DNA of 42,795 bases from Jimgerdemannia flammicorona (taxonomy: Eukaryota), in NCBI GenBank assembly GCA_003990765.1, contig RBNJ01000084.1:1-42795 (forward strand). Reading direction: 5' to 3'. The position numbers were made by a program, and so were the translations under genes. A model generated the notes under the pieces. It searched no databases, was not told the DNA's origin, and saw only the letters and a program-made list of their open reading frames with translations. Of the stretch, positions 3,520-28,840 are shown one piece after another; within the stretch, counting starts at the first letter, position 1; every line of letters starts with the position of its first letter.

Positions 3520-3564
3520 ATTGAAGAAATGTTGCAATAGAGACCCCAACCTATAATTCCATGC

Positions 3565-5466
3565 TCATCTCATCTCCCACCAGATCCAAGCGCTGCTCAG
3601 CTTCCAATTCACCCTCTGCATTATTCTGAGCATCCAGTGCCCCCAAGATTTCCTAACATTCCACCCTGTCCACTTCCTCCATATCCACCCTGTAGTCCAA
3701 GCAGACAGCACGCCACTTCTCCAGTCTCTTTCTCGAATTCCACAAGAAAATTGCTCTGTCACTTGCAATCCTCCTAAGTTTCTCCTCTTGCTGATCATCA
3801 ACCTAATATTCAACTGACTCTAGGAGGACTGCCAGGATCTCATTCCTTATCTTCCTTGGCACCTCCTCTCCCCATAGGATCTTCTCCCAATGCTTCTCCT
3901 CCAACACCCTGAAGTCCTCACCCCCTAGCTCTTCAGCTGCTACCCCTTCCAAGGTCTTCTACATCCACTTCTCCTCATCTACTGCCTCTGCTGCCCCCTG
4001 AGCGATTTGTCCTCCATCCACCTCGGGGTCCACCAGCGTGCTCCTTCTCACCGACTCATCTCACTCCTCATCCGGCACATCCATCAGCTCCTCCTCCCCC
4101 TCTGCACCATTCAGAACACTATACTGAGGGTGTACACCCTCACCCATTTCGGCATCTGCCTCCAAATTGCCCTCCCTCTCCTCCCCACCTCCAATCCGAA
4201 CCCTGCCCTGGGCCATCTCTCTTCCCTCAGTCCAGGCACTCTCCCATGACCCTGTAACTCCCTCCCCTGAGCTTCCACCAGCCCCACCCCCACCCAACTT
4301 CATCAACAACTTCTTCTGGATCCTCCTCTCCTGCATCTTTTCCCAGGCCCCCTTCTCCATCCGGATCCTCTTCCCATCTACCTCCCCCACCACTGTTCTG
4401 GCCTCAAACTCCTTCCAGACCAATCTCCTCCTCGCCACTACCCCTTCTAGGTCCTCCAGAGCCTCCAACAGGTCCTCCTCCTCCTCCAGAGTCCCCTTCA
4501 CCCTGGTGACCTTACACTCCACCGGTCCCCACCACAGTGCCACTGGCCAGTCCCTTGACTTCCCCATATTCTCCTTCCCAGCCAGCCTCACCCTGACATC
4601 GATATTACCAGTTCTAAGCTCCGTGCCCTCCCAGACCTTGAACCCAACATCCACAATCTTGCCATACTCCTTGACTGCCTCCACAACCAACTCCCTGGTC
4701 CTTTCCTTTGACACAGTCAGGAGGTCCAACACCATCAACTGCACCACTCGGGGGTCCCAGTACAGGCACTGGGCCATAGGGACCACAACTCCGCTAACCA
4801 TCACCCCGTCTCCATAGCTGCCAATAAGGCATCTTCCTCCTCAAACCCCACCTCAACCCCTTTCTTTCTCCTCAAGAACTTCACTGATGCTACTCCCTTA
4901 GCCTCCTGCCCCACCAGCCCCAAAATCATCCTCGCTGTCACTGCCAAGCCCCAGAAGCACATCATGACCACAAATTCTGACCTCAACTTCTTGAGTAATG
5001 AGGCCGACACCATGCCCATCACTCCATCAGCCAGGTCCCCAGGCCTCGTGCCCACTCCAAGTTCCGAATTGCCAACCGCCATCACATCTGGATTTTCTGC
5101 CAGATCCCCAGTCACAGCCCCATCAACAGTCACATCTCCAGCCCCTACTCCGGCCCCTTCCCTACCACCAGAAGCACCCTGGGGTGTACCTCCCTGACCC
5201 CCAGCAGTAGCCATTGATGCCTTCCCCAGGCCCAGCCAATCATCTAGCCTAGAAGCCATCTTCCCCATTCTGACCTTGTTAGCAAAGGTCGACCTCTCCC
5301 CTCCTCTCTGCCTCAGACCACCCCTCCCTCCACCACCAGTACCTCAGCTAGCCATCAAGGCCCCTGACATCTCCAAACCATCCCCCCTCCTCCCCACCTG
5401 CTGCCAGCCAAAGGCACTGTCACCCCCCTGGCCAGTACACTCACCAGTTCGATTGTTGCCATCTAT
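3565..5466 (-). pseudogene. LINE ORF1 (nucleic-acid-binding gag-like protein), disrupted
   Basis: ORFs 5344-5529, 4801-5268 and 4061-4804 join across stops and include an STFANKV motif. They are homologous to the ORF1 pieces at 24563-24940 and 35115-36242. The probable ATG is mutated to ATA at 5466. Confidence 0.8.
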
Positions 5467-5548
5467 GTTGTTAGTCGTCAGATACCAAAAACATTGTAAA
5501 AAGTGTTGTCTGAGTCTTATGTCATCCAAATATTACTGGTGAAAAGGC

Positions 5549-6890
5549 CAACGAGAGCAACTGTCAATGATATCATCTCTGATAAAGTAGTTATCTAAGA
5601 AGAATAGTTTTTAGATTATGTCTCCTTATTCATTTATATAGTAATAGATTGAAATAATATCATTATCTCACAGGATAGTATCATCTGTTTTATATGCTGA
5701 GTAAGGTATCAGTAAGTGAAGAAGAGATATATCATCTTCACTTTTATTAAATTCACTATCTGTATATCTTTTATAGATAACAGCACTATGAGTTACAGAG
5801 TTGTAGTAAGCTGGTAGCTATAATTCATTTTATTTATACTTAAGGGATAGAGTTGTTGGTTCAATCTCAAGGATTGTCTGGAGGTACAGGTTATGTTCTC
5901 CAGTCTCTTCATTATAGTTGAAGTAATCAGATATAAATATAAATTAATACTCATGCTAGTGGTCATTATCTCAATAGGTCTTATAGATAGTTATGAACTG
6001 TTGTAAGTTTATCAGCAGGGTCAGTAGAGTGATCAGAGCTGACAGAAATCCTTAGCTGGAGATTATATCAATATCAGAGGGATCATTATCTTTAGCTTTA
6101 TTATTATCAAACTGAATTATATTATAGATATCCTTTATGGTATATCCAACTTAAAGCATTTGTAGGATATAGTCATCAGAATGGGGGAAGGATCTGTCTG
6201 TAGTTTAAATATACTCAATATACTTATGGTTAAGTTCTTGTACTATATAATTGATTTGACTATAGAACAGAGTAGTAATTATTTTAGTAGTAGTAACTTA
6301 GAGGTAGTGAATAAAGGTACTATATTTATAGAAGAGTTCTCAGTATTTATAGATAATGAGTTTCTGGTATTGAGACATCTGGATAATATCTATATCATGG
6401 TGATATTAAACTATATCTTCTAAAAATAGCCAATCTGGTAGTAGCTTGAGATTTGTCTAATTCAGTATACTTTGCTAAATATATTCAGGGCATTCTATTT
6501 AGCTTCTACAAAGTAGAGAGATTTCAAGCTATGGATATTTATAAGGAGTAGAAGAGGTGTGGCTTAATTGACAATGATATTCCAAATATTAGTATAGATA
6601 TAGTTGTAGATCTCAGTAGTTATGTTTGTTTATATATTTAAGAGTTATAGTTGTTTGTTTAATTTGTTATAGTTCTTTATTTTATTATATTTGTATTTTC
6701 AGTATATATACTTTTAGTCCTAATTAGTAAGACTTTATTTGTATAAATCTTATATTCTATAATTTTGAGTTGACTCAGCTTTATGTTCTATGACTTCAGT
6801 TTGACTCAGCTTCATAATCTTACATGTGATTTCTGGATTTGTTCTGAGGGTGATATGTGATTTCAGTAGCTTAGAGATTGTATACTTATA
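5549..6890 (-). mobile_element. Partial LTR of family B, interrupted by LINE copy 1
   Basis: Colinear with about 27500-28840 and in part with 41860-42444. Similarity stops exactly at the LTR end (tatacttata at 6890 vs tatactcata at 28840), and no PPT follows. Confidence 0.88.
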
Positions 6891-9050: not shown

Positions 9051-9260
9051 CCAGTTTTTAGCTTTGGCAGAAGTTAGTTAGACTTTTAGAGTTTAGTTAA
9101 AAATACTAAAGTAACTTAGAGATCATTACTAAAGAACTCAGGGAATATATATATGGAGAGGGATTTGTACTTAACTAAGAGCTAGTTTATTTCAAATACA
9201 ATTATTGGGATATTTATACATGTTGGCTAAGTAATATTTTATAGTTTTCTGGCTATCTAT
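9051..9260. repeat. Fragment of LTR family D (left part; target of element A)
   Basis: About 9060-9132 aligns with 42721-42795 (GGCAGAAGTTAG...ATCATTACTAA). Confidence 0.6.
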
Positions 9261-10774
9261 TGTCATATAGTGGTCGCTGAGTCCTTCAAATATGCTAGAT
9301 TCTCTTCAAGGTGTATCTCTTAGACTAACTCAAGTTTGTTATAAGCAAGTTCTTATTGGAGTATCTTCTCAAGGTCTTATAGTTCTCAAACTTCTTATCT
9401 TTAACTGTTTTGTTATCTCTTAGATTGTTTGCAAGAGAGTGTGTATAAGTAAAACCAGAACTGACTTTATTTCAGAGGAAATAAGAGGGGTATTTATACA
9501 AAATATAATTCAATGGTTGCTAAGATATAAAGCTAAATATAAATTCTAATAACTAAAACTACTAAGTTTCAGAGTTGGTACTGATGGTTGTACAGGTTCA
9601 GAATACTGGTATAATTCAGTATCACATCAGAATACTAGTGCTGGAACAATTTCACATCACTTCAGAATACCAGTACTAGCATTATCCAGTGTTACATGAG
9701 AATACTGATGCTGGCATTATCCAGTATAATAAGGAACTTAGAGCAGAAAGTTCAGGATCATGGAGGCTTCATCATCATTATCATCATTACTGAAGAAGAT
9801 GAGATCTGCGAATTCATCGTTTTCACATGCTTTGATGTCATGTGGGATGACATCATCACCAATGACGTCATCACATTTGGCAGGGAAATCAGAGGCTCTC
9901 TAATCTATGAGATTCTCTTCCACAAAATAAGGAACAAATGTAGAGTCTTGGGGAGGTCTAACCTGGATACTTGGGCCTTGGAATACTGAGATTAATCCTT
10001 GCAGAAATTGGTCTGAGTTGTTCTGAAGGATGGGATGCCAGAAGTCTTCTACTTCATCACTATTGAGGGTAATAGTGGACTGGGCTTCTGTAGCTACTCT
10101 GGCTTATAGGACATTGATACAGTGGGATGACAGGTCTCTGAAATCTGAGACTCTAATATACTCCAAGTTAGGGATCAACTATGGTGTATACCTGAAGATC
10201 TGATGGATCTTCTTAGCTGTTCTTGCCTTGTGTATATCCATAGGAGTGGTATCTTATAGCTCTTGAGGGCTGGCCTGTGGGAACTCCTGGCAGAAAAGGT
10301 TTTCTATTTTGTACTCCTACCATATTTGGAGATATTCGATAGTAATGATGATCCTTGTTTCCATTTTATAGCAGTAGAGGATAAAGTGATAGGGATCTGC
10401 AGTACCCAGGTTGACACTAGGAGTCCTCCTTGAGCAGGTCTCCATGGCTCTTCTGATGTCTTGGAACATTCTTTCTTCAACTGAGGTACCTTGGTAATTT
10501 CTTGACCATGAGGTTTAGCAGGCAGCAGGCATTTTATTTGTGGTAAGTCTTTGAGCTATTTTGGAATTGGTGGTTCTTGTTGGTTGCTGCTACTGCAGTT
10601 CCTTGATCCTTCTTTTATATTCTTCAGAATGCTTGTACTGTGGTCACAATGACTCACAGTTGGTCATCATTGCTTATCTCATATGCCATATGATCTTCTT
10701 ATGCTCCAATCTGGTGGCTTGCAAGGAAAGGCTATCTCCTGTGCTGATGTCATCATTCTAGAGTCACTGTTACA
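9261..10774 (-). repeat. 3' LTR of element A (1514 bp)
   Basis: TGTCA...GTTACA termini; direct repeat of 16473-17989; adjacent to the PPT. Confidence 0.95.
9738..10532 (-). pseudogene. LTR-encoded accessory ORF of element A (~265 codons), unknown function
   Basis: Same length frame as the 16950-17747 copy apart from one 3-bp indel. The stops read are TAA/TAG/TGA reachable by transitions. Confidence 0.65.
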
Positions 10775-10784
10775 TCTTTCTCCT
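10775..10784 (-). promoter_or_regulatory. Polypurine tract of element A
   Basis: AGGAGAAAGA lies directly before the 3' LTR on the minus strand. Confidence 0.8.
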
Positions 10785-11089
10785 GAATAAGGATCTTCTT
10801 GAGCATCCTTATTCATTAGTCCAGTCCTGAAAAATTTGCTGATTCCATAACCTCTAGCAGGAGTCAAAAAGTGGTGTTTATGAACTGGTGTCTTCTTTTT
10901 GTATTTTGGCATGATGGTGAAGGATCACTCTCTTCATATAGAACAAGGGTCTGATTCTGATCTTGACCAATTAGTTGATGGTTCAAACTCCTCTAACTTC
11001 GAAAGTCTCATGGATGAGTAGTTGCCAGTGCCATATTCCTTAGAGAATGGTCCAGACAGATAGCTTGCTGATTATGGAACATGCTATTA

Positions 11090-12140
11090 CAATTTGCAGA
11101 CTAGAACCTCACAGGCAGTCATTACATTTTGCTTCTCTTGTATAGGTTCATAGTACTTCTTGAGTCTGTTCCTGTATACTGTAGTAGACAGTATGGTCCC
11201 TGAGATTTTTCTAAGCCAGAAGGTGGTTCCCTTGATATCTTGCATGTAAAAGAGTCCTTCTCATTTGGGCTCCAGTTTTCACAACTATGAGGCTTCTACC
11301 ATATTTTGATATAGTAGAACCTTTTCTCTGATTCGGATGAGTTCTAGGGTCTTGTGATTCTTTTCCACATTCTTCCTTATCAGCACTTGTGACTTGGTGA
11401 TATAATCTTCAGCCTTCTTCCTGATTTGGTGTAGTCTCCAGATTTCTGCATCAACCCATCTCCAAGTTAGGTCTAGATTTGTGGCTGAGGTTCCATCAGA
11501 ATCTTCTTCTCTGAAGAGCAGCTCTCTTGGGGTAAAGTGTGTGCTCTGTGACTATATGTCTCATAGGATAGAGAGAGCAGTTGGGAGATAGTTATCCCAA
11601 TTCTCATATGTCTCTGAGATCTTTGCTAGGATGTTCTTGAGAGTCTTGTTGGTTCTCTCTGTCTGTCCATTTCCTTGAGAGTGGTACACAGTGGTCTTGA
11701 TGTGCTGGATCTTATATTTCTGATACATTATCTTGTGGAATCCATTGACAAATTCTGTTCCATGGTCTGTTGTAATTTGCTTTGGTGCCTTGTAGTGGCA
11801 GATGATTTCTCAGTATAGGAAGTTAGCTATAGAGAGAGCATTGGCTTCTTGTAGTGCTCCTGCCTCTATCCATTTGGTAAAGAGGTCTACAATAACTATA
11901 ATATAGCAGTTTTCTGATAGTGTTACTGGTAGTGGTCCAATGATATCCATTGTGATGTAGTGGAAGGAGATAGGCTCAATTCTTGATGACTCAGGTACCT
12001 GGTCTTGCTGATCTTGTTTTTGGCACTTGTCACACTCTTTGATGAATTGGTGCAGGTCTTCTTCCATCTTGGGCCACCACATGGTTCTTCTTGCCTTGTC
12101 ATATGTGTTAGTTCCTCTTAAGTATCCTTGCTTGTGTACT
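11090..12140 (-). pseudogene. Integrase (H2C2, rve core, GPY/F-type C-terminus) of element A
   Basis: WWPKM..CDKCQ, MDIIGPLP, VDLFTKW, TTVYHSQGNGQTERTN and KLEPK*EG..NRLKKY. No chromodomain seen. Confidence 0.9.
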
Positions 12141-12319
12141 TCCTTTATTACTTGATACTTTTTGTATTCAGATATTACTAGTTTTCCTCCTTTTCTGAGT
12201 ATAGTGTTGTCTAGTTCAAACTGTTTCTAAGTCTGGTTGATGATAGTAATTGTCTAGGGTTCAAGATGATTGAGCATCTTCCACTGTCCAAGGTAGCTGA
12301 GTAATCTATAGTATAGCTC

Positions 12320-13556
12320 CTTATTCATGTTGAATAGTCTTAATGGGGGTGTTTCAGGGTGTTCTTGAGAGTGTATTGGCATTAGTGTTGGTCTTTCCTG
12401 AGTGGTACTTGACAGTACAGTCATACTCTTGCAGCCTGTAGATCCATCTGACATATATTCCTTTGGGGTTCAGAGTGTGGAATAGCCAGATAAGAGCAGA
12501 GTGGTCTGTTTAAATGGTGAAGTGTTTCCCAGCTAGGTAGTAGTGGAACTTGTCTACTGCCCAAACTACTGCTAAGTATTCAAGCTTATATGACTCATAG
12601 TTTTGTTCTGCTCCACAGGTGCCTTGGCTTGCATAGGAGATGACATATTCATGTCTATCTTTCTTCTGAGCTAGGACTGCTCCAAGTCCTATAGTACTCA
12701 CATCTGTCTGCAGGATGAATTCTAGGTTCCAGTCTGGTCTTCTGAGGATAGGTGCTTGGGTCAATCTGGTCTTGAGTTTATTGAAGATTTCTTGGTGCTC
12801 CTTGGTCCATTCGAATTTGGTTTTCTTCTTCAGAAGCTCATAGATAGATGCTGCAATATTGGAATATCTTTTGATGAATCTTCTGTAGTAGCTGGTCAGT
12901 CCAAGGAAGGCATGGACTTCTGTGGTTGTTTTGGGTCTTAGGTAGGCTGTAACAGCCTCAATCTTCATAGAGTCTGTGTGGATTCTGGTCTGGTTGATGA
13001 GGTGTCCTAGGTAGGTGATTTCTTGAGCTACAAACTTGCATTTCTTGGACTTGATATAGAGGCCATATTTCTTGAGCTTCTTGAGGGCTAGCTGTATGTG
13101 ATTGATATGTTCCTGTGTAGTGTTGCTGAAGATGATCACATCATCAACATAGACAAAGAGCCATTTTCCAATCTCATTGCTGAAGACTCTGTTCATCATT
13201 CACTGGAAACTTACTGGAGTATTGCACATTCCAAATGGCATTCGCAGGTAAATGTAGGTGGTGTCAGGTGTGATGAAGGCTGATTTCTCACTGGTATCTT
13301 GAGTGAAACCAATCTGATGGAAGCCTGAGAACAGATCCAAGGTGGTGTAGTATTTGGCTTCACTTCCAAGAGTGGTAAGGATTTCTTGAATATTTGGCAA
13401 GAGCTGCCTATCCTTCTTAGTGATGGTATTGAGCTTTCTGTAGTCAATGCAGAGTCTTAGTACAAACTCTCCAGGCTTGCTTCCTTTCTTTGGGACAAAG
13501 ACAATGGGTGAGGTCCAGGGGCTAATAGCTTGCTTGATGATTCTGACTTCCTCCAT
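12320..13556 (-). pseudogene. Reverse transcriptase and RNase H of element A
   Basis: SPWTSPIVFVPKK, LCIDYRKLN, LDLFSGFHQI, MPFG, YVDD, FLGLTSYYRRFI, FILQTD.S..GLGAVLAQ. Confidence 0.95.
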
Positions 13557-13841
13557 TTCCTTGAGTTCTGCTCACAGCCACTCTCTGTAGACAGGTGGTA
13601 TGGGTCTGACTTTCTAGTAGATGAGCTTGGTATCACCAGTGTAAACTTCATGATAGTACTTGGGTTCTTGATTGTGGATATCTCTGAAGTCTGTAGCAAG
13701 TACTTCTTCATTCTGGTACAGGATCTTGACAAGTTGTTCCTCTAGGGGAAAGTTTTCTTCAATGGTATATGTGTGCTTATTCTGGTCCTTGTCTTTCTTG
13801 TGCTCAAGTTCAGTAATCTTGGTGGTAGCATAGACTCCTCT

Positions 13842-14252
13842 TCCAGTAGATCCAAAGCCTTGTTCTTCTCTCTTGGTCTTGATGAGTTTGATGGCTTCTA
13901 TGATCTTAGACTTCTTGACTTCGTGGATCAGCATCTGGCCAATCCTATCATGCTTCTTGACTTCAAAGAGGGTAGTGTAGTTGTGATTCCTGACTATGAG
14001 GAAGATCTCACCAGTGTAATCAGGGTCAATTACTCCTCCTTCAACTGAGATTTCACTTTTGGTCAGGCTGCTCCTGGTCTTGATAATTCTGGCATAGTTC
14101 TCTGGCAGTTTGGCTTCAATTCCAGTGCCAAGTAGGGTGGTGGTCTGTGGTTCAAGGATAGCATCTTGAATGCTGGCAAGGTCCATTCCTATGGCTTCTT
14201 CAGTCTTATATTCTGGGATCTTGGCTTCAAGGTGAAACTTTTTAACCTTGAG
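13842..14252 (-). pseudogene. dut: dUTPase domain between PR and RT of element A
   Basis: All five trimeric dUTPase motifs are present in ORF 13614-14432: GMDL, RSSL, GVIDPDYTGEI, DRIGQM, R...GFGSTG. Confidence 0.93.
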
Positions 14253-14699
14253 GATGATGTCTGATTCTTGTTCCTCCTTATCATTACTATCAGCCTGAAG
14301 CTCTGGGGACTGGTCATCTTCTTTGGCTTTCCTTTTTGCTTCAGTGGCTTCTTGCTCATGTTTCTGTTGACAAATTTTCCTGACTTTACTGATACAAGAC
14401 CAGCAGTCATTCAGGTGTTCAGAGCAGTACATCCTAGTACCATGGGGGCATCTTCCTTGAGGGGCATAGTCATCAATGATCTTGTTGTACTACTGCTCAT
14501 CTGTGAGCTTGGGTGTCTTGTTCTTGTTCTTGTTCTTGTTTACCAAGTGCATGAAGACCTCTGTGTCCTCTTCATCTCCTTCCTCCATGTCTGGTAGAAC
14601 TCCTTTATGGATATTGATAGAGACTCATACCTTTCTTCCTCTATAGTTAATCTGCATCTTCTGGACATTGAGGTCAATGATGGCCTTGACCTTGTGAAG

Positions 14700-14965
14700 C
14701 CATTGGTTGTCAATGAGGATGTCATAGTTGGTGGCACTTATAACAATCACGTCTACTGGGATAGTAGCTCCTCCTATCTTGATGAGGACTTCTCGGATTT
14801 TGCCAAGGAGGGTAGCTCATATACTATCTGCTGTAATATAGACCATCTTGGTGGACTCTTCAATGTCCCAACCTAGGCAGTCAATTGCCTTCTTGCTCAT
14901 GAGGTATCCTCTAGCACTAGTATCAATGATGGCATCAAAGATACAGTCTTCAATCTGGCAGGAGG
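14700..14965 (-). pseudogene. Aspartic protease of element A
   Basis: FDAIIDTSA is a decayed DTGA active-site motif. Confidence 0.8.
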
Positions 14966-15229
14966 TATAGGCTGATGTCTTGTGCTGGTATTCAGATTCT
15001 TCATCTGAGTTCTCGGATTCTTCCTGTGCATTGTGAGCTTCTACAATCTTGTACTCTTGATTCTTGACAGTAGTTGCAAGTCCTACTCTCAACTGCTGTC
15101 TGAAGGCAGGGACTTCAGCTAGCTGTCCAAAAGTGGTATTGACCTTCTATTCCTTAAGATCCTTGTAGATATCATACTGGTGAATCTTGGTCTTGTGCAG
15201 CTTCTGTTCCTTCTTGCTTTCACTTTCTT

Positions 15230-16420
15230 CTGAGACTGGAGTAGTACCTTCAATGATTTGGCAGGCAGCTTCATCTAACTCCATATCTTGATCAATCTTC
15301 TCAGGTTGGGTCTTGCTTTGAATAGTGATAGCTGGGGTCTTCTTTGGTCTTCCAACTGACTTGCTGTTGCTCTTCTTGTCATAGGGCTTGGACCAGGTTC
15401 TGGTACCTTCAGTAGTAGGGTAGAATTCAAGCTCCTTGTAGTATTATTCATCATCAGTGTCACCAATCTCCTCAATGACTACTGTATTGGTTTGTTCTCT
15501 GGTTCTGCTAATATTGCTTAGTTGGGCTTTGTGTCTTATTTCAGTTATGCAATTCTTTGCATAGTGGCCTTCTTCTCCACATCTGAAGCATGTGATATTG
15601 TGTTCTTCTGTAGCAGCTGCAAATCTCTGCACCGGTCTCCTGTTGGCACTTCAGACTTCTCTAACAACATCACTAAGGTGTGCAGTTATCTTGGCAAACT
15701 GCTTGGCAAGTTCTTTCACTGGATCAGCTTTGGCTGTCTTGGGGGTAGGTGGGGTTGGTTGTCTGTTTACAACTGTGGTAGATATAATACTAGTTGGCTT
15801 TGATGGCTCCATCTTGATGCCAGTTATTTTCTCCATTGAGTGTTCAGCAAGGTGTCTGGCAGTCCAATATCTCTGTGCAAAGATCACTTTCTGATCAAGG
15901 GTCAGTACAGCTAAGGTAGACCAGATTGCTAGAGCAATTTCAGGGTGAACTCCTTTGAGGAAGATTGAATCTACTATTTGTTCCTTGAGGGCATCATTAT
16001 AGCCAGCCAGGACAATCTGGTGACAGATTCGGGTATAGAATGAGTTGGGATCTTCACTAAGTTCCTGGCAGATAGTATTGAGTTAATCCTTGAGAGCTTG
16101 CTTGATCTCTTCGGTATAATATATTATTCTGAAGAAGGCCTTCATATTGACAAGTTTGGCTGTACCAGTATCAGCAATAGTAGTTGCATTGAACTTATCT
16201 CTGGTAGGTCCTCTGAGGCTGACTGGTAGAAGGGCCAATTGAGCATCCACACCAAGAGCTTATATAGTAGCGAATTGTTCAAAGTCTTCAATGAAGATCA
16301 GGATTAACTCTTCAGTAGTATATTTATAAAATGTTGGGGGGCACATTTCTATCTTGTCTTGAATTCTTATAGAGGTAACTCTTGTAGTTAAGGTAGTTGT
16401 TGTGGGAGTTGTTCGTTTTT
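15230..16420 (-). pseudogene. gag with CCHC zinc knuckle of element A
   Basis: CFRCGEEGHYAKNC at 15549-15590, with capsid-like motifs upstream (PPTF..., FIEDFE, Q..SEDPNSFY, FLKGVHPEI). Confidence 0.85.
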
Positions 16421-16472
16421 CAGCTTGAAAGTGAGGAATTCATCTTGAATTACCAGCCAATAGGTACTAAGT

Positions 16473-17989
16473 TGTCACATAGTGGTTACTGAGTCCTTCA
16501 AATATACCAGATTCTCTTCAAGGTATATCTCTTAGACTAACTCAAGTTTGTTATAAGCAAGTTCTTATTGAAGTGCCTTTCTAAGGTCTTATAGTCCTCA
16601 AACTTCTTATCTTTAACTATCTTGTTATCTCTTAGATTGCTTGTAAGAGAGTGTATGTAAGTGAAACTGGAACTGACTTTATTTCAGAGGAAATAAGAGG
16701 GGTATTTATACAAAATATAATTCAATGGTTAATAAGATATAAAGCTAAATATAAATTCTAATAACTAAAACTACTAAGTTCCAGGGTTGACACTGATGAT
16801 TGTATAGGTTCAGGATGCTGGTATAATTCAGTATCACATCAGAATACCAGTGCTGGAACAATTTCATATTACCTCAGAATACCAGTGCTAGTATTATCCA
16901 GTGTTACATGAGAATACTGGTGCTGGCATTATCCAGTGTAACAAGAAACTTAGAGCAGAAAGTTCAGGATTATAGAGGCTTTATCATCATCATCATCATC
17001 ATCACTGAAGGAGATGAGATCTGCGAATTCACCATTTTTGCATGCTTCAATGTCACACAGGATGATGTCATCACTGATGACATCATTACATTCAGCAGGG
17101 AAATCAGGAGCTCTCCAATCTATGAGGTTCTCTTCTACAAAATAAGGAACAAATATGGGGTCTTGGGGAGGTCTAACCTAGATGCTTGGGCCTTGGAATA
17201 CTGAGATCAATTTTTGCAGGAATTGGTCTGGGTTGTCCTGAAGGATGGGATGCCAGAAGTCTTCTACTTCATCACTATTGAGAGTAATAGTGAACTGGAC
17301 TTCTATAGCTACCCTGGCTTCTAGGGCATTAATATAGCAGGATGACAGGTCTCTGAAATCTGAGACTCTAATATACTCCAAGTTGGGGATTGACCATGGT
17401 ACATGCCTGAAGATCTGATAGATCTTCTTAGCTGTTCTTGTCTTGTGTATATCTATAGGAGTAGTATCTTGTAGCTCTTGAGAGCTGACCTGTGGAAACT
17501 CCCAGCAGAGAAGGTTTTCTATTTCATACTCCTACCACATTTGGAGGCATTCAGTAGCAATGGTGATCCTTGTTTCCATTTTATGGCAGTAGAGGATAAA
17601 GTGATAGGGATCTGCAGTATCCAGGCTAACACTAGGAGTTCTCCTTAAGTAGGTCCTCATAGCTCTTCTGATGTCTTGAAACATTCTTTCTTCAACTGAG
17701 GTACCTTGGTGATTCCTTGACCTTGAGGTTTAGTGGGCAGCAGGCATTTAATTTATGGTAAGTCTTTGAGCTATTTTGGGATTGGTGGTTCTTATTGGTT
17801 ACTGCTACTACAATTCCTTAATCCTTCTTTTATATTCTTCAGGATGCTTGTACTGTGGTTACAATGACTCACAGTTGGTCATCATTGCTCATCTCATATG
17901 CTGTATGATCTTCTTGTGCTCTGATCTGGTGGCTTGCAAGGAAAGGCTGTCTCCTGTGCTGATATCATCATTCTGGGGTCACTGTTACA
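16473..17989 (-). repeat. 5' LTR of element A (1517 bp)
   Basis: TGTCAC...GTTACA termini. About 13 differences from the 3' LTR in the first ~130 bp, all transitions. A decayed PBS-like TAGTACC lies adjacent at about 16464-16470. Confidence 0.95.
16950..17747 (-). pseudogene. LTR-encoded accessory ORF of element A, 5'-LTR copy (~266 codons)
   Basis: Includes listed ORF 17178-17381 in frame, with only three internal stops in my translation and an acidic DDDDDD tail. Confidence 0.68.
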
Positions 17990-18264
17990 CTATATATAAC
18001 TAATTAGATATATAGCTACTTTAGTTATTTATAATGTCCTTTGTATTCAGGACAGTTGCTTTTGGTTTTGTGATCAGTGCAATTGTTTTTGGTAATGCAT
18101 TAGTTAAGTAATACAGTTGCTACAGCACTGGTGCAGATTCCAGTGTTCAGGGGGTTTGGTATCTTGTTTTCTGCGTTCGTTCGTACGTCTCATTCGCGAC
18201 GTCATCGCTCGCCGGGTCACGTGATCGCCATTCGTGGTATGTTGCGAATGTAATTCTTATTACA
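17990..18264. repeat. Continuation and terminus of the LTR family D fragment
   Basis: Joined to 9051-9260 by the CTAT TSD. It ends in ATTACA, the inverted match of the TATAAT (TGTAAT) start at 42445. Confidence 0.5.
18174..18246. promoter_or_regulatory. CpG-dense micro-island with E-box and CRE-like motifs
   Basis: 14 CpGs in 73 bp, including GTCACGTGAT and CGACGTCA; the surroundings are nearly CpG-free. Confidence 0.55.
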
Positions 18265-18270
18265 CCAGCT

Positions 18271-18342
18271 AAAACACTTATTCCAAGTAGAATACCTGTT
18301 CTAAGTAGAATATCTGTCTCACAAGGAACACTTATTCCACAT
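18271..18342. repeat. Degenerate 18-bp tandem repeat, 4 units
   Basis: aaaacacttattccaagt / agaatacctgttctaagt / agaatatctgtctcacaa / ggaacacttattccacat. Confidence 0.7.
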
Positions 18343-18485
18343 AGAAACAGCAGTCATATCTTCTCTAAATTAGCCTTATTGCACATTCTATAATTATTTA
18401 GATAGTAATCAGATAGTAACCATACTTATATAAAATACCTCAGAGATTTGAGTGAATAACTCTTAGTCTGAAAAGTCAAAGCCAA

Positions 18486-21400
18486 TTTTTTTATAGTCAC
18501 TTGGACTCCTTTATTATGGTAACTATATAATACAACAATGACTCCATCTAATAACTACTATAACTATAAATATAAGAAAGAGTCCATCAGCCTACACCCT
18601 CTTTCCACTGCACTCTCTTCTCACCAAGCACTAGGTACTCCTGACTCCTCTGAACAATGTCTAGTACCTTCCTCATGGCCTCCAACTGGTGCCTCTTCCC
18701 CTGATACCACCACCCTTGTATCACTTCCAAAAGTAGTCCCTTCTATCACTCTACCAATTTGCTAATTCTCATCTAAGGATCTCTCTTGAACACCTATTGC
18801 CAGTACACTGCCATCAGGACCCAGATACCAATAATCTGACCCAGACCACTCCAAATGTCCCCAATCTCTCCCACCAGTTGCCACTTGACCACCCGACTAG
18901 TGGGGCCCCCTGCTCACTCACTCTTATCACCCCAATAGCTTTCTAACATCTGTCAAAATTCCTCAACTCCTGGATATGCCACTAAGATATGCTCTGACAT
19001 CTGCACCACACCCCCATCCAGCTCACAACACCACTCACATTCCCTTATACCTTTGGCCTCTATCTACCCCATCCTGTACTCCAGCATAATATTCCTTTAT
19101 AAAAATCTCTACCATACTATCCAAAACTTTGGTAGTACAACCTTGAGTAAGGAGGTCCCCCAACCCCAAACCTGACCCCACTTCTAATCTTCCCCAAACC
19201 CAGCCTTCTGCCAACCAACTGGCCACCTCTCAAGTAGACCCATCCAGATTCATTTCATTGTCCCAGACAGAGAGTATTCTGCTAACTAATGACCACTAAT
19301 ATGAATATCTCTAAGTTGCCACCATTGCTATTCCAGGTCCTTCTCTTTGCTTGGCTCTGGATCTGTGAGTCTCATTGCTAGCCAAGCCTCTACAATACTC
19401 CACTAGAATCTCTGGTAATACAATCTACTAACCCTTCCAACCTGAAGCAAGTCTCATATTTTTCTGAACCTTACTACAGAGGCAAAACCTGACTTCCCAA
19501 TTGTCTATAGCCAGTTTGCCCTAGCTATCCACTCCTAATTCTATCAGTCAACAACTCCACTAGCTCTGAAGTACCTTCAGCTGCCTCCTAAAGTCTACTA
19601 GCTCCAAACTACCATCTACTGTCTGCATTACCACTATCTCCTAACTAATCTGTGATCTTCTTTCTTGCCACAGCCATTCTTCTTCAGTTTCTGTACCACC
19701 TATCCAGGAAAGTCCAAATAGTATTCCAAATACTATAGCTTTGGTAGCCAATATACATTCAATACTACAATTCTCCCCACCAAAGAGAAGCCCCTTTCTG
19801 ACTAGTCTACCAAAGTGCTCTCCCATTTCTGTATCATTTCACACCACTACTCCTTTGGCAGTACCATCCCATATACTGAGAACTAGACACCCAAATATTG
19901 AACTGCCTCTCTAGTACTGACCAGTTGTCCAAAATGTCTATACTCTCCCAGACCAACTCCAAGCTCCATAGTCTCACACTTGCCCCAATTCAGCTTTACC
20001 CCTGCCAGCCTCTTGTACTGTCCTATCCCTTTCTGTAAGCTTGCCACATCTGCCATACAGTCTAACTCTACCACCATATCATCAGCAAAGGCCCCCAGCT
20101 TCCAGACCACATCCCCTATCTTCAGTCTGGTAAACCTCCCCTTCAGTCATACTAACAAAGACTCCAAAGACAAAATATAGAGCAGGGGTAAAAGAGGATT
20201 CCCCTGTGGCACACCTCTCCCCAAGACAAACTCTGGGCCACTCCACCTATTCATTAGTACTACAGCCCAACAGCCTCACACCAGACCCATCAGTTTCTGA
20301 GCCTCCACTACACTGAATCCTGCCTTCTACAGAACTGCCTCTAAATAGTTCTACTGCACCCTATTGTAAGCCTTTTCCTGATCTAAGAACACCATTCTTC
20401 CATCTACTTACCAGCTTCTACAGTTCTCCAAAATGTTTTGTACCTAGGCTGTACTGTCTCGAATCTGTCTCCTCTTCACAAACCCTCACTGTTCTTCACT
20501 CACCAATTGGCCAATCCATCATTGCATTCTCTCTACCAGAATCTTGGAGACCAACTTTCTGTCCACATTCAGTAACATAATGGGCTGTCAGTTCTGCCAC
20601 ATATGTCAATCCCCTTTCTCCTTATAGAGTAGAGAGACTAACCCTAAGGAGCTATTACTGATCCAGCAGTCTTTACTCAATATAAAGTTCACTATTTCAA
20701 CAAGTCATCCCCTAAACTCAACTTGAAACTCCTTCCAGAACTCCCAAGGCAGTCCATCCTCCCCTGGTGATGAACCAGTCTGCACTTTCCTCAGAATCTC
20801 CAATACCTCTTCAAGGGCCACTATACCTATTACTACTCCACCTATCTCAGGCACTACTACTACTGACCAGCTATCAACTAAATTATCATTATCCTTCAGT
20901 AAAGCCTCTCTCTCCACTGGCCCTTCTTTATCCTACCATAGAGTGCACTATTGACCAGAGATCTCTCCAAGCATATCAGTAATATCAGTAACCTCAACTC
21001 TATCCTCTCGCAACACCAAAGCCCAGCTATGCTATACCCTCCTAGCCTTCAAGATTCCTGATAAGTATTTAGTGAGTTGTTCTCCTTCTTCCAACCATCT
21101 TGCCTACAGTCTTATCAATAGCCCATCTACCACCCTATCTTCTGCTGCCTTCAAATCCAACCACAACTCAGTCACCTCCTTGGCTAACTGGGATTGTCAT
21201 TTCTCTGATAAATTCTCTCTTTCCAGAAATCTCAGCTACCAAAAAAGTCTCTGTTCAACTCTTCTTTCTCTATCCTTCTGCTCCCTTCTAGCTACCTCCC
21301 CCACATTATGTCAATATATACCTGCCAAATGTTTAAATTTCCCCCACTACTGTGCTATTGACTATCTACTGTTCTTCTACTGCATCACTTTCTGCCTTGC

Positions 21401-22930
21401 AATTATCACAAACTGGTCTCTCTCTATCTGTTTTTTGAGTAGTATCACATTGAGTTGCCATCTACCTCCACCTCTACTGACTATCTGAAATCTCCCACAT
21501 ACCTCTACTTCCCAGTGATCTGACCAAGAATACCACCATACTCCTGTTGAATCCAATATGTTACCCCAGCATTCTGCTATCAGAATCCAATCAATCCTCA
21601 TTCTAACCAAGTTCTTGCCAACTGGATACCACTTAGTAAATGGCCCTGGCCTCTTCCCTTAATGTTGTCATACCCCATTAACCAATTCCATATCTCTCTC
21701 AACCTGGAGCCATTATGAGAGCTCTGCTGATACAGCTACACCAACTCTACCATCAGATCTATCTAATGTCCTGTTATGTACTATGTTAGAGTCCTCCCCC
21801 AGAATGTCCAGCCTAATCTCATCTCAGTCTCCCCAAGTCAGCCAACCCTCCATCTATTGGTTTTACTCTCTACCAACTACCAGCAGATAGGTAGAGCCAA
21901 CTACTAGTCTATCTCCAGCTCTTCCTTTCAATCTCCCCCAGATCAATTGATCACTATATACCTTAACTTCCATCAGCTCACCTCTCTCCAAGCCAACCAA
22001 AATACCCACCTGCTCATTCAAACCTGTACTTCCATATCATTCTCTGCTCCAATCCTCATAATATTGCTCCCCATAGGTCCAAATATCCTGCAGAAACACC
22101 ACATCATATCTCCTGACCTTCAGCCAATGAAATAGATGCCTTCACTTTACTCTATCACACAAATCATTGATATTTAACAATAAAATACATAGACTGTTCA
22201 TCATCATAAATAAAAATGTTTAAAGCTCTGCTGGGATTACCATCACCTTTTCAGCCCAACTACAGATTATTGCCTTCCATTCCATACAGATAGCCCTCCA
22301 GATATGGGCTCTATTTATACTACTGCAGAAGATATCCACTTACTCAGATACCACCTTCCTGATGTCAGCCATATGGTCCTCATCTACCTCATATTCTTCA
22401 TCATCCAGAAGTACTGCCACTATCACCATTACTAACTTTGGCCCCTGTAATGCCATATTGAGGAACCCTTCCTAGGTCTCCTGAGATCCATTAAATACAT
22501 CCACTTCCTTGATATCCTCCTCCACAAGTCCCTCAAGTACTGCCTGATACCAGTCATCAGCCATCATTACCAGGGGCCCAGGAGTGGCTGGCCTCAGGGT
22601 CCTACTTAGTTCCTGTAGCATCTCTCTACCCACCAATACATCAGAGGCCACATCCATCAGGTCATCCTCCTCCATACCCTTCTCCAGCCACACCACTTCA
22701 CCTGTCTCTGGATATTCCCAATGAACATTTACTGCTCCTGCTATATGAATATCCTCCAACTGAGTCTTTGACACTATCTTAACAATCTCCTCAAAACCCC
22801 CTACATTTGTCTCCTCTCTATCAGCCTACTTCCCCTTCACTGGTATATGAGCCAAGCTCTCTACACCCCCCAGTTGCAAAAAGGACACCTCAGCTATCTC
22901 CACCTCTTCCATCTGACTCTTGGCCATCTC
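18486..22930 (-). mobile_element. 3' portion of a more divergent L1/Tx1-like LINE (ORF1 C-terminus, ORF2, poly-A)
   Basis: EN start MNSLCILLLNIN..FLQDI near 22200, then RIDWIL, WSDH, SPGEDGLPWEFW and LGAFADDMVV. A7 tail at 18486-18492. Confidence 0.88.
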
Positions 22931-25350
22931 TGCCCTTTCTTCTCTCTACCCTCTGCCCTCCATCAATTCTATCTAATAGTACATTTTTGACTATATTAAA
23001 GTTCCCACCAAGTACATCCACTCTAGCTCCTGTCAGAGTCCCTTTCTCCTGGAGACCCTTCAGCTACTCTACACACTCACCCTGTACTGCTAAATAGTAG
23101 CAGGATCCAACTGTAATCAGTTCCTGACCAGAGCAAATCTACTCACCCCAGACCAGCCTATCTTTCTAGTTCTGTATATCTCATATCTCTCCTCTGCTCT
23201 TCCTGACCAGAATCCCAACCTTGCCCTTCCAAACTGTCTCTCCTCTCCATTTCTTTGTCTATTCCAGTTTATTCAAATCACCCTCATATCTGATATCCTA
23301 CAAAAGAAAGAGATCAGCCTCCAATCACTTTAGTATTCTATTGATGAAATGAACCCTAAAGCCTATTCACATTTAAAGAGAAAATGTTGGTCATACTGTT
23401 TATAAGGAATAATATATAATAGTAGGCATATCCTCTACTGCTCCATGTTCATCTCATCCTGAGCCAAGTCCAGATTATATTCCACAGCTTTCTTCTCTTC
23501 AGTTCTCTTAGTCTCCATTTCAGTCAGAAGTTCTATAAACTCTCCATCCTCCTTCTCCTTGAATTCTTTACAATATTTCAGGCAGACCTCCTGCTAGAGC
23601 TACAACCCATACCACTCTGCTCAACAGAAAACAGCTCTCTCACCAGCAGTAACTACCAGTCCAGCCTCTCTCTCCTTATCAACCTCATACCCTTCCTCCT
23701 CCAGGAAAACTGCAAGAATCTCTGCCTTCAACACCTCCACCACTCTCTCACTATGCAAGATACATACCCAATATTCATCACTCATCACTTACAGATCCAC
23801 CTCTGATGCAAAGTTATTCATCATCTTACACATCCAGAGCAGATTTCCCACCTCCTTCCCCCCAGGAGTCACTGGCCACCCTCTATCCAGCATTAAGATA
23901 TCAGCTCCTACACTTGCAGCCTCATCCCACTCCTCTTTCTGAATATCTCCTCACTCACTACCACTACCTACCCCCCCCTTTGCCTTCTCTCCCCCTCCTG
24001 GTCCCTTCTCTGTATTCTCTCTATCCTTACTGGCCCAGATGCTCTCCTTGGCTCTCTCTATGATTTCAATACCACCAGCATCCTTCTTTGCCCTGCTTTT
24101 CAGTTTTGCCAACAACTCTCTCTGCCTCTTATGTTCTTGGGATCTTTTCCACTACCCCTTATCTACCTGAACTCTCTTTTCATATACCACTTTCAGATAT
24201 ATCAACTTGATATACACCTTCTAAGCCTTAGCCCTCCACTCTACAACATCACTCAGCTCTTTCAGTGTCTTCAGCAGATCCTCTTCCTCCTCCTCACTCT
24301 CCTTCACCCTCATCACCTTATACAAGAAAGCCCCCCAGACCATTACTAAAGGCCAGTCTCTAGCCTTTCTGGTAGTTTTCTTCTCTGCTAACCAAATTCA
24401 AACATCAATATCCCCAGTCCTGAATGAGGTCCCCTTCCAGACCCAAAACCCAACATTGATCACCTCACTATACTCAGCCATAACTTCCTCAACTCTTCTT
24501 CTTGTCTCCTCAGTGGTTATCATAGACACCCCCTTCACCAGTAATTGTGCCACCCTGGGGTCTCACCTTAAGTAGCACACCATTGGAACACACATCTCTC
24601 CAACTATCAACCCTACCTTCAGTGCCTCCTCTAATGGTCCAGTCTCCTCAAAACCAACTTCTACTTCTTCCAGTTCTTTCAGGAACTTCACAGATACTGC
24701 TCTAGCCACCTGCTTAGCAATCAGCCCCAGGACTATTTTCACCATCACTGCTAAGTCTTGGAAGCACAAAGTGATTGTAAACTCCAAAATTGACTTCTTG
24801 AGTAATGGTGTCACCACCAGTTCTATTATACCATCTGCCAAATTGCTAGGCCTTGTGCCTTTCCCACTGCTCAGTCTATTATCAGCAGTCCCATCTAGAT
24901 TTTTTTCCTGATTATCTGTCACACTCTCATCAGCAGTCACTCTCTCAGCCCCTACACCACCAGTCCCACTACTCTGACCCCCCAGAGAGACTCCCCCTCA
25001 AGGCTACTGCTCAGCAGTCTTCACCATCTCCTTATCCCTCCTAAGCCAGCCCTCCAGTCCAGCTCCCTGCTGACCCCCCCTTCATCTTATCCACAAAGCT
25101 TGTCCTCTCTGTCCCCTGATCTCCAGTGCTGTCTCCTCCCCTACTATATTCTCTTATCAGCAGACCCCTCATGCTTCCCCCCAAGCCTGGGCTCCTCTCT
25201 ACATACTGCCAGTTGAATACACTCAGACTACCCTGCTCAGTATACACCTCAGAATACTCTTTAGTTGCTATGATACTAGTAGCTTTTCTTTAAAAACTAT
25301 GTTGAAAGTGTTGTCAAAAGATTGTATAACCTGAATATTACTGAAGAAAG
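22930..25350 (-). mobile_element. 5' portion of a LINE close to copy 3 (5' UTR, ORF1, truncated endonuclease)
   Basis: Colinear with about 34050-36652. A second EN start NSMTNIFSLNVN lies near 23400, with GNFN..LDRIDGG ending near 22940. Confidence 0.85.
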
Positions 25351-25378
25351 ACATGCTATGGATTGAAACATAAAGTAC

Positions 25379-26805
25379 ATATAAGCAACTATTACTACTC
25401 TGCATCATCTCAATAATCTGACCATTAAGACAGTAGATTTTATTAAGTTAAAATCAACTACCAAGGCTCTAATCAAAGAAAGTCAAAAAGTAGCTAGATA
25501 TGACCTATATATAGCCAAAGAAGCTATAGTTTTCAACTAAGAAGTCAAACAAGTTTATATAGGAATCAGTATTCAAATTCCTGAAGGATATATTAGAAGA
25601 ATATACTGTTACAGCAGCCTAGCATTAAAAGGACTCTCAGTAGAAGAAGGAATCATTGATAAAGATTATATAAGTAAAATCATTATCCTTATCTGAAACT
25701 ATAGTTGGATACTATTCAAGATCTCTATTGATTTTTGTATTACTCAGATTCTATTTGAAAAGATTAAGTCAACTCTGACAATCAAGGAAGTCTCTGAACT
25801 ACTGCCTACTATCTAAGGATCTAAAGGATTTGGCTCATCAAATAAGGCCCCAGCCCAACCTACCATAAATAAGGAGAAATAATTCTATAAGAAAAGTGAA
25901 GATAAATTTATACCAAGTAGCTGATGACCTTATAGTATTAGAATATACTCTTCTTGAATAATTGAAAATTGCTTCTCTTATATCAATAAACTAGCTCAAA
26001 GAAGAACCAATAGAAGAAAAGCTTCTATAATTGAAATTACTACTATTGGATCAGACAAACTGCTTACTCTCCAAGCTTTTATTAATCAAGTACCTGTTAA
26101 GATCATAATAGACAGTAGTGCCTCTGGCAATTTCATCAATGAAGAAACAGCCAATAGACTCAAAGTTCTGACCTCTCCAATATAATAGACTCAAGCTATT
26201 GTTATAGCTGATAGAACCTCACATATTATTAATAAGGAAGTCTGCAACCTATCCTTCAGAATTGGCAATTACTAAGTATATATCACACTCTAAATCATAC
26301 TACTTCCTGATAATGAAATCATCCTTAGAACTCTATGATTAAAGCAAGAGAACTTCATGATTGATTGAGTAAACTATTCTCTAACTATTAAGAAAGGACA
26401 CTATAATATCAAACTATAAGACAAAAGAGACCCACTCAATTATAGACTCAAGGATTATATATATCAATAAGCTATAACTTAAGAAATTGGCCAAGAAATG
26501 CCCTCTTTTTGCTATCTCTATCTGACCATCTAAAGGAGAACCCAAGAATAATAAAAAAGACTTCTCTAAAGTTGACAGTTGCATTAGACCTCTACTCTAG
26601 AAATTCTGAGATATATTCTTAAAGAAACTCCTGAAAGGCCTACCATCTAAATGAGCAGTAGATTATATCATCAAGATCATCCCAGATACCAAGCCTACAT
26701 TCAAGTCAATCTACTATATATCTCTAAGAGAGATTGATATACTCAAGAAAGAAATCAATAAACTTCTAGAATAAGGATTCATTAGACCTAATATATCTCT
26801 ATATA
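25379..26805 (+). mobile_element. Internal fragment of a family-B gypsy element (dUTPase, protease, start of RT)
   Basis: Reverse-complement homolog of about 37810-39185. dUTPase at about 25436-25840 (YDLY, SSLALKG, GIIDKDY, GFGSS); protease IDSSASGNFI at about 26108. Cut at the IRP.IS.Y motif by the LTR starting at 26806. Confidence 0.88.
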
Positions 26806-28840
26806 TATAAGAGGGTTACTTATAAAAGTACTATTATATAGTTCTGAAAGAGTTTTCTAGAAGTTCTGGATATTCTGAAAGATTGTTTTCTTTAGGTCAA
26901 GATCAATTTTATATAGAGTATATTCTCTATACTATTGATTTTAAGATCAGATTGACATCTCAACTAAAGTTCTTTTTTAGACTAGTTCTGGATATTCAGA
27001 ATTTTCTATATTTCAGAAAGTTTAAGAAACTAAGACTAGCTTAGTTGAATTAGCATATCACTGCAGACAATACCCAATTAGGAAATTTTATGATATAGTT
27101 AGGAGTGAGACCTAACAGGATATAGATTTACTTAAGAGTAGTTTGTAGGTTATTAAATAGGTTTATAATATTACTATACTAGGAGTAGTGTGTAAATAGA
27201 TATTGTAAGGAAGTGTTCAGGAGTTCTTATATATTCAGATCTGTTCAAGTCTGAGTTTCTGAGATCTAAGAGAGCAGATATTTATACTAATAGAGGTTAT
27301 CTAGACTATACTAAATATGGATATATGTAGCACTTAGTGTCTTACTGAGTCAGAATATAGTCATATAATACAAGTGTGAACTGATATGTCAAGAGATCAT
27401 CTGACTGCTGAGTCAGTATATAGTCACATTATATAAGACTAATCTAACTATACTAATAACTGCTAAGCTATCTATAGATTTAGATACTATCTAGGTAGTC
27501 TTCAATGAAGTCACTATTGATATTATCTCTGATAAAGTAGTTATCTAAGAAGAGCAGTTCTTGGATTATATCTTCTTATTTATTTATATAGTAGTAGGTT
27601 GGAACCATGTTACTATCCTATAGGATAGTATCATCTGTTTCATATACTGAGTAAGGTATCAGTGAGTAGAGAAGGGATACATCATCTTTGCTTTCATCAA
27701 ATTTACTATCTGCATATCTTCTATAGATAATAGTACTATAGATTACAGAGTTGTAGTAGGCTGGTAGCTGTGATTCATTTTGTTCATACTTAGAAAGTAG
27801 AGTTGTTGGTTCAATTTCAAGAGTTATCTAAAAGTATAGATTATATTCTCTAGTTTCTTTATTGTAGTTGAAGTAATTGGGTATAAATGTAGATTGATAC
27901 TTATGCCAGTGGTCATTATTTCAATAGGTCTCATAGATGGTTATGAACTATTATAAGTTCATTAGCAAGATCAGTAGAGTAATCAGGGCTGGCAGAGATC
28001 CTTAGCTGGAGGTCATATCAGTATTGGAGGAGTTATTGTCTTCAGCTTCATTGTTATCAAACTAGATTATATTGTAGACATTCTTTATGATATATCCAAC
28101 TTAGAGTATTTGTAAGATATAATTATCAGGATAAAGGAAGGATTTATCTGTAGTTTGAACATACTCAATATACTTGTAGTTAAGTTCTTGTATTATATCA
28201 TTAATTTGGTCATAGGACAGAGTGGTAATCATTTCAGTAGTAGTAACTTAGAGGTAGGAAATAAAGATACTATACTTATAGAAGAGTTCTCAGTACTTAT
28301 GAGCAATGAGTTTCTGGTGTTAGGATATCTGAATAATATCTGTATTATAGTAGCATTCAACTATATCTTCTAGGAGGTGACTGATCTAGTAGTAGCTTGA
28401 GATTTGTCTAATTTGGTAGACTTCACTAAGTATGTTCAGGGCATTCCATCAGGCTTCTACAAAGTAGAAAGATGCTAGACTATAGATATTCATGAGGAGC
28501 AGAGGAGGTGTGGTTCAGTTGACAATAGTATTCCAAATGTCAGTATATATGCAGTTATAGATCTTGGTGGTCATATCTATATATATTCAAGAGTTGTAGT
28601 TATTTATTTGGTTTATTATAGTTCTCCATTTCAATGTATCTGTATTTTCAGTATATATATTTTTGGTCCTGATTAGTAAGGCTCTGTTTTATGTAAATCT
28701 TATATTTTATAACTTCAAGTTGACTCAGCTTTGTGTTTTGTGACTTTGAGTTAACTCAGCTTCATAATCTTATATATGATTTCTGGATTTGTTCTAAGAG
28801 TGACATGTGATTTTGGTGGCTTGAAGGTTGTATACTCATA
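26806..28840 (-). repeat. 3' LTR of element B (~2035 bp)
   Basis: The start TATAAGAGGG corresponds to TGTAAGAGGG at 41154. The end is defined by the 6890 copy and the adjacent PPT. Confidence 0.88.
27490..28574 (-). pseudogene. LTR-encoded accessory ORF of element B (>=200, possibly ~360 codons)
   Basis: ATG at 28574 (MTTKIYNCIYTDIW...). The frame is kept in the copy starting at 6623, and stops are transition-type. The 3' limit is uncertain. Confidence 0.58.

Follow-up and report, generated by a model that had tools for sequence, protein, structure and literature searches.

A dead copy of a probable accessory gene inside the long terminal repeats of a dUTPase-bearing Ty3/gypsy retrotransposon in Jimgerdemannia flammicorona

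Long terminal repeats (LTRs) are usually regarded as promoter and terminator modules without coding content, and genes are not sought there by annotation pipelines. In the betaretrovirus mouse mammary tumour virus (MMTV), though, the LTR is unusually long and its U3 part contains the entire sag gene, which follows the polypurine tract in the genomic RNA and is present twice per provirus; the gene product, Sag, belongs to the type II membrane glycoproteins and has a Pfam family of its own. The foamy virus genes tas and bet and the lentiviral gene nef encode small intracellular accessory proteins at the 3′ end of the genome and run into U3. Judged by titles and abstracts, the phrase "LTR ORF" belongs mostly to papers on MMTV. 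Extra open reading frames (ORFs) are also carried by LTR retrotransposons, where excerpts of two papers describe them as lineage-specific, of diverse or unknown function, placed in gag-pol orientation and, in many cases, expressed from spliced messages (PMC5408684, PMC2864245). None of these extra ORFs is described as LTR-internal in those excerpts, whereas the ORF reported here begins 242 nt inside an LTR. The full-text literature, outside which most subscription journals lie, yielded no description of a protein gene inside a Ty3/gypsy LTR. An LTR accessory gene is thus known from MMTV, and what we describe here is probably one in a Ty3/gypsy element, with an orphan protein family.

The window (the whole stretch of DNA that was analysed) comprises 42,795 nt of contig RBNJ01000084.1 from assembly GCA_003990765.1. 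On its minus strand, at 9261-17989, lies an old Ty3/gypsy LTR retrotransposon of 8.7 kb, hereafter element A, which was delimited by its LTR pair and its Pfam domains. Self-BLAST and MAFFT alignment revealed a single direct-repeat pair for this element, formed by a 5′ LTR of 1517 nt (16473..17989, minus strand) and a 3′ LTR of 1514 nt (9261..10774, minus strand) that are 89.6% identical over 1518 columns in self-BLAST, which placed the repeats at 9260-10774 and 16472-17989. Read in element orientation, the LTRs start with TGTAAC and finish with GACA, and so are of the TG..CA type, and by sequence the insertion is bounded by a minus-strand target-site duplication, ATAG, whose upstream copy (17990..17993) matches the downstream copy (9257..9260). 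A polypurine tract, AGGAGAAAGA (10775..10784, minus strand, by sequence), abuts the first base of the 3′ LTR; inspection by eye of the sequence beside the 5′ LTR turned up no primer-binding site, and a tRNA gene with which to compare is absent from the window. The internal region (10775..16472, minus strand) is rich in stops, with 15 of them in frame from gag to IN, and its Pfam matches follow one another on the minus strand as zinc knuckle, aspartic protease, dUTPase, RT, RNase H, integrase zinc domain and integrase core (RVT_1 2e-31, RT_RNaseH_2 7e-33, dUTPase 4e-24, rve 9e-09 and Integrase_H2C2 2e-12, with gag, through its CCHC knuckle (zf-CCHC), and Asp_protease also matched). Direct LTRs with TG..CA ends, a short duplication and the order PR-RT-RNase H-IN, in which integrase comes after RT, are together the features of a Ty3/gypsy element.

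The dUTPase domain sits between protease and RT, within a 291-aa stop-free stretch of pol (13614-14489, minus strand). A protease-dUTPase-RT order is given, in excerpts, for PosPlaTy3-5 of Postia placenta, and the dUTPase-bearing fungal Ty3/gypsy elements as a set (PosPlaTy3-5, those of Phanerochaete and Tmt1 of Tuber) agree with element A in this respect (PMC2864245), as do elements of bdelloid rotifers (excerpts of PMC5408684). The likeness to these named dUTPase families is one of domain order, the best Pol relatives of element A being just 41-49% identical to it. A search with RT/RNase H returned 1590 Pol relatives at E<=1e-20, none of them above 49% identity; those that carry names come from sources as diverse as plants, Rhizophagus, fish and a pseudoscorpion, and among the 120 matches listed 8 bear a dUTPase.

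Around this element, the window is occupied by other decayed repeats. Pfam searches of 1-5500, 10775-16471, 18000-25500 and 30500-37000 on the minus strand recognised no cellular protein-coding genes, everything matched being retroelements, and tRNA and Rfam scans found neither tRNA genes nor Rfam RNAs in the window. Three blocks (1-5500, 18600-25300 and 31000-36700) have a GC skew around -0.5, with a C-rich plus strand. Each is a non-LTR (LINE-like) retrotransposon in decay, oriented along the minus strand, with RVT_1 matches at E 1e-21, 3e-18 and 2e-08 in turn, and blocks two and three share 72-73% identity. Three direct copies (5560-6890, 26808-28840 and 41156-42444) represent a second repeat family, which is AT-rich and of 80-84% identity; an inverted repeat pair joins 25556-26809 to 37804-39059, and RNase H of another Ty3/gypsy element survives as a remnant near 36700-37000 (minus strand). 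The AT-rich repeats, the inverted pair and this remnant suggest that LTR elements from a different family are nested or rearranged here. CpG observed/expected ratios are 0.00-0.20 in every segment of the window, which holds 108 CpGs in its whole 42.8 kb and 7 in 20001-42000. Of these CpGs, 14 are found within 72 nt at 18174-18245, about 185 nt outside the 5′ LTR, in a patch that contains CACGTG, has no Rfam match and may represent either a very recent insert or an island free of methylation.

Each LTR of element A contains, on the same strand as gag-pol, a long reading frame, the LTR ORF. By translation and tblastn, the copy in the 5′ LTR (16950..17747, minus strand) has 265 codons and that in the 3′ LTR (9738..10532, minus strand) has 264, each closed by TAA. 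The frame spans LTR positions 243-1040, or 798 of 1517 positions (53%), in good agreement with a first-pass annotation of this DNA that had described an ORF of about 265 codons filling half of the LTR and present in both LTRs. The same annotation was right that the copies differ in length by one codon of an Asp run: a GAT accounts for the gap, and this 3-nt difference is the sole indel in the 1517-column LTR alignment. It had also treated preservation of the frame in both LTRs as telling, an argument to which we give no weight, since the 719 non-ORF positions are equally without indels.

Both copies of the LTR ORF are broken. The 5′ LTR copy has in-frame stops at codons 6 (TAA), 72 (TAG) and 190 (TAG), and the 3′ LTR copy at codons 6, 72, 93, 118, 143 and 211. 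As already read from the bare sequence, two of these are common to both copies, namely codon 6 (TAA) and codon 72 (TAG, directly after TGG), and others are private to one, including the CAA versus TAA difference (codon 93) and the TGG versus TAG difference (codons 118 and 211); private stops are found as well at codons 190 (CAG/TAG) and 143 (GAA/TAA, a transversion). When 13 proteins of the family described below were compared with the window by tblastn, the 5′ LTR copy was matched at up to 79% identity (E 2e-120), and no ORF copies besides the two in the LTRs were found in the window. All nine ORF stops being TAA or TAG had suggested a ciliate-type code, in which both would be read as Gln; such a code was ruled out because TGA makes up 7 of the 15 in-frame stops in the gag-pol frames of element A. 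Two antisense open frames, at 16827-17204 (plus strand, 125 aa) and 9639-9989 (plus strand, 116 aa), run across the part of the LTR ORF that encodes its acidic tail, where the GAT repeat is read as poly-Ile; they probably result from the composition of the sense ORF.

In both LTRs, the ORF lies between the LTR start and a pair of promoter- and terminator-like motifs. Its ATG is 242 nt inside the LTR, the start of which is abutted upstream by the polypurine tract, and this 242-nt leader contains several ATGs. Directly 3′ of the ORF, after a gap of 6 nt, Tandem Repeats Finder located an array of 3.2-3.3 copies of a 35-nt unit (16816..16943, minus strand), candidate U3 enhancer repeats, across which the 3′ LTR aligns without gaps. 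By sequence, a TATA motif, TATAAATA (16703..16710, minus strand), follows, and 20 nt downstream of it stands AATAAA (16678..16683, minus strand), a candidate poly(A) signal. That the ORF ends just before tandem repeats and a TATA-like motif, as the first reading of the sequence had it, is therefore correct. We assign the ORF to U3 because the TATA and AATAAA motifs lie downstream of it; the transcription start and the U3/R border would be those marked by this one TATA motif and this one AATAAA motif.

A third ORF behind pol is a common feature of LTR elements (excerpts of PMC5408684; "add. ORF" in excerpts of PMC2864245), and a frame of this kind could be taken for a misplaced env-like or third ORF, or for the C-terminus of Pol, that the repeat boundary includes only in appearance. 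The anatomy of the element makes this very improbable, as the LTR begins right at the polypurine tract, 242 nt before the ATG, and the entire ORF is contained in both repeats. The protein itself is equally ill-suited to such a reading: it lacks a hydrophobic segment, 6 of its relatives begin at the same MP, and its longest match in a representative search without length limit is 342 aa, so that no Pol fusion is seen.

A second alternative is that the frame is non-coding U3 left open by chance, and that its database matches are gene-caller artefacts on related LTRs. The stops themselves bear on this, since over the span of the ORF there are 3 and 6 in the ORF frame of the two copies versus 8-30 in the five other frames of each, and mononucleotide shuffles of the 5′-LTR copy gave a best frame with 11.8 stops on average and reached three or fewer stops in any of the three same-strand frames in only 6 of 20000 cases. 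Relatives without internal stops were gathered from three protein searches and one cluster member, giving a set of 14 proteins (P0003-P0008, P0011, P0019-P0022 and P0143-P0145) that are 25-82% identical to the window copy and match with E-values of 1e-118 to 2.5e-06. The first search contributed 6 proteins at E<=0.01 among 155 candidates; the second, with no length limit, contributed 5 at E<=0.001 among 1.84 billion representatives, with a longest match of 342 aa; and the third, with a profile of alignment A2, contributed 11 at E<=0.001 among 8000 scored candidates. The window copy is similar to these proteins significantly and over its full length, with the same start, core and tail. More specifically, 6 relatives share the start MP(A/P)..R, conservation is highest in the core (roughly residues 140-215 of P0004), and in most members whose sequence extends to the C-terminus an acidic run precedes a terminal LNFLL or a variant of it, with four near-invariant columns in the family alignment in addition to the conserved core block.

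The relatives are automatic predictions on JGI/ENA contigs of 540-4848 nt, annotated at most as "hypothetical protein", and they show no recognised domain or fold, as gene-caller artefacts might. Nevertheless, we hold a chance-open frame to be extremely unlikely, given the rarity of equally open shuffles, a conservation that is patterned into near-invariant columns and a core block, and the persistence of 214-342 open codons at 25-38% identity, a divergence at which non-coding DNA would be stop-saturated. Because frames of that length remain open at that identity, the ORF is not accidental; judged by its protein relatives, the LTR ORF is a genuine conserved protein gene, now decayed.

The same alignment shows what the relatives have at each of the broken codons. 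Opposite the shared stops they have Gln in 6 of 6 cases (codon 6) and, among 10 cases, an even split of 5 Gln and 5 His (codon 72), which bears out the earlier view that these stops are secondary; at the protein level, in stop-free relatives, the shared stops are not fixed in all copies. Among the stops private to the 3′ LTR, codon 118 corresponds to Trp in 9 of 11 relatives, codon 143 to Glu in 13 of 13, codon 211 to Trp in 11 of 11, and codon 93 to Gln in 4 of 11 with the others mixed; codon 190, stopped in the 5′ LTR, corresponds to Arg in 5, Gln in 5 and Thr in 2 of 12. Several relatives are N-terminally shorter and may be truncated reads of decayed copies. One of them is the closest relative, P0003, which begins at the Met of codon 22, a start that may also fit a codon-6 stop in P0003.

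A conserved gene could also have come from the host, as a cellular gene or gene fragment captured into the LTR by one lineage and carried there as a passenger without a role, in which case the database relatives would be a cellular family or other captured copies. The protein is indeed unlike any retroelement protein and any other part of the window, its relatives are known here from protein sequence, apart from their genomic context, and the stops shared between the LTRs suggest that the ORF was dispensable for this insertion. Yet identities of 25-82% that retain the same start, core and tail fit long maintenance in a diversifying lineage better than a single capture event. P0144 and P0143, moreover, differ at 45 of 175 aligned positions, 14 of which are Arg->His/Cys/Trp/Gln, and such losses of Arg are the footprint of C->T decay at CGN codons and an indirect sign, at the level of protein sequence, that the relatives are repeats; one relative is in this sense an Arg->His/Cys/Trp decayed version of another, as in methylated repeats. 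No relative carries a name either, which is a weak point given that the closest Pol relatives of the element are also unnamed. On balance, we regard a transduced host gene as unlikely, and a gene long maintained by the element as the better account.

To the history of this insertion, the differences between the two LTRs are the main witness. They amount to 155 substitutions (151 transitions, 4 transversions) and one indel, of 3 nt. Within the ORF, they are distributed 32/27/34 over the three codon positions, at a density (93/798) slightly above that outside it (62/719). Because the differences fall evenly over codon positions, neither copy has been under selection since insertion, in keeping with neutral drift. 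When the private amino-acid changes are polarised against the relatives, C->T or G->A suffices for 26 of the 29. CpG is saturated, with 1 kept in both LTR copies and 15 TG/CA pairs that represent CpGs hit in both copies on opposite strands, and the largest class, with 66 of the 151 transitions, is CpA/TpG->TpA (38 CA/TA and 28 TG/TA pairs). Since C->T or G->A makes up 97% of the differences, dating by LTR divergence with a neutral clock would overestimate the age of the element.

The sequence context of these changes is itself unusual. Per copy, the odds of an isolated change are about 0.19 at CpA, about 0.21 at CpC and 0.016 at CpT, such that C->T in the LTR pair is about as frequent at CpA as at CpC (odds about 0.2 per copy) and 12-fold rarer at CpT. 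This signature does not match plain CpG decay, and it is also unlike the usual pattern of RIP, which we take to be CpA-only.

The stops had been ascribed, in the first-pass annotation, to CpG-type decay, and the shared ones either to convergence by such decay or to an origin before insertion. With respect to the first of these ideas, C->T/G->A decay is what is seen, but the stops arose at CpA/TpG and not at CpG, all the stop-creating transitions (CAA->TAA, CAG->TAG and TGG->TAG) being of that type. With respect to the second, 15 codons are one transition away from a stop in both copies and 4 such codons have been hit in one copy, from which a simple equal-rate model expects 0.27 convergent shared stops, with P(>=2) = 0.03. 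Convergence at both sites is thus unlikely, and one or both of the shared stops probably arose before insertion, or else spread by LTR-LTR conversion. As two convergent shared stops are unlikely, the insertion may stem from a source in which the ORF was already broken, and if so the gene may be dispensable in cis for transposition. The copy of the LTR gene in this window is dead.

The protein that the ORF would encode has a pI of 4.5-5 and an uneven distribution of charge, with a basic N-terminal segment of 60 residues (+4/+4 per 30 aa) and a strongly acidic C-terminal third (-6 to -11 per 30 aa). No hydrophobic or membrane segment was found, the maximum 19-residue hydropathy being 0.64-0.97. 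AlphaFold2, run on alignment A2, returned a weak model (mean pLDDT 56, pTM 0.49) with helices at 18-149, where blocks reach a pLDDT of up to 91, and a tail at 216-271 below 50; on this model the acidic tail is probably disordered, with conserved hydrophobic motifs DLISF and LNFLL. Pfam offered no family for the two window copies and 7 relatives, giving a sub-threshold match to GAE_BBS1 only (E 0.23), and a profile search of PDB sequences gave 0 matches at E<=1. Structure-based comparisons were similarly negative, with best scores of 0.83 and 0.86 for two queries of the ESM Atlas, under the 0.9 lead level, and 0 Foldseek matches at E<=0.001 against PDB and against BFVD in turn. The features of an envelope-like ORF3 are absent, there being neither a hydrophobic segment nor a PDB or BFVD fold match at E<=0.001, and the absent Pfam match speaks against sequence similarity to the enzymatic and envelope-like ORF3 types. 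The LTR ORF product would not be an envelope or structural protein.

These properties set the gene beside, and apart from, the systems with which we began. As with MMTV sag, the ORF would lie inside U3 of both LTRs; unlike Sag, the protein has no hydrophobic segment and no Pfam match, and its carrier is a Ty3/gypsy element and not a vertebrate retrovirus. To the tas, bet and nef products there is no similarity of sequence or fold, although the combination of a basic N-terminus with an acidic tail would resemble activator-type regulators in its architecture alone.

Taking this evidence together, we consider it quite likely that the window preserves a dead copy of a genuine accessory gene within U3 of a dUTPase-bearing Ty3/gypsy element. 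Reverse transcription would copy U3 to both ends of the element, each insertion would begin with two identical copies of the gene, and both copies here would then have decayed neutrally through strongly biased C->T/G->A mutation. The LTR would be laid out, in order, as the integrase end and the 242-nt leader, the ORF with its own ATG, the 35-nt repeats, TATA, AATAAA and U5. With such a layout, the 5′ copy would be upstream of the LTR promoter, and genomic RNA would carry only the 3′ copy, in its 3′ part and downstream of the polypurine tract. The 3′ copy might be translated from a subgenomic and probably spliced message, which is favoured by the several ATGs in the leader and is the route described for other third ORFs (PMC5408684). 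Its product, predicted to be soluble and to join a basic head to a helical core and a motif-rich acidic tail, would then be an intracellular trans-acting factor serving the element.

If the LTR ORF is such an accessory gene, we put at about even the chance that it acted as a regulator of the element's own expression or as an adaptor or antagonist of a host factor, going by its sequence and its predicted structure. Much more tentatively, and with considerable doubt on our part, the family might be a new one of nuclear transactivators or anti-silencing proteins, with a basic N-terminus and an acidic tail of activation type, that act on their own LTR, for example on the 35-nt repeats directly after the gene.

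For the biology of LTR retrotransposons, the gene indicates that acquisition of accessory genes by Ty3/gypsy elements can use the same site as MMTV sag, and that long LTRs may hide orphan genes. The family that it belongs to is small and unstudied, with 14 clusters among 5.8 billion, and its likely job is to help a retroelement cope with its host. Were the family to act as transactivators, it would represent an independent "complex retrovirus" strategy outside the vertebrate retroviruses, in a non-retroviral LTR lineage.
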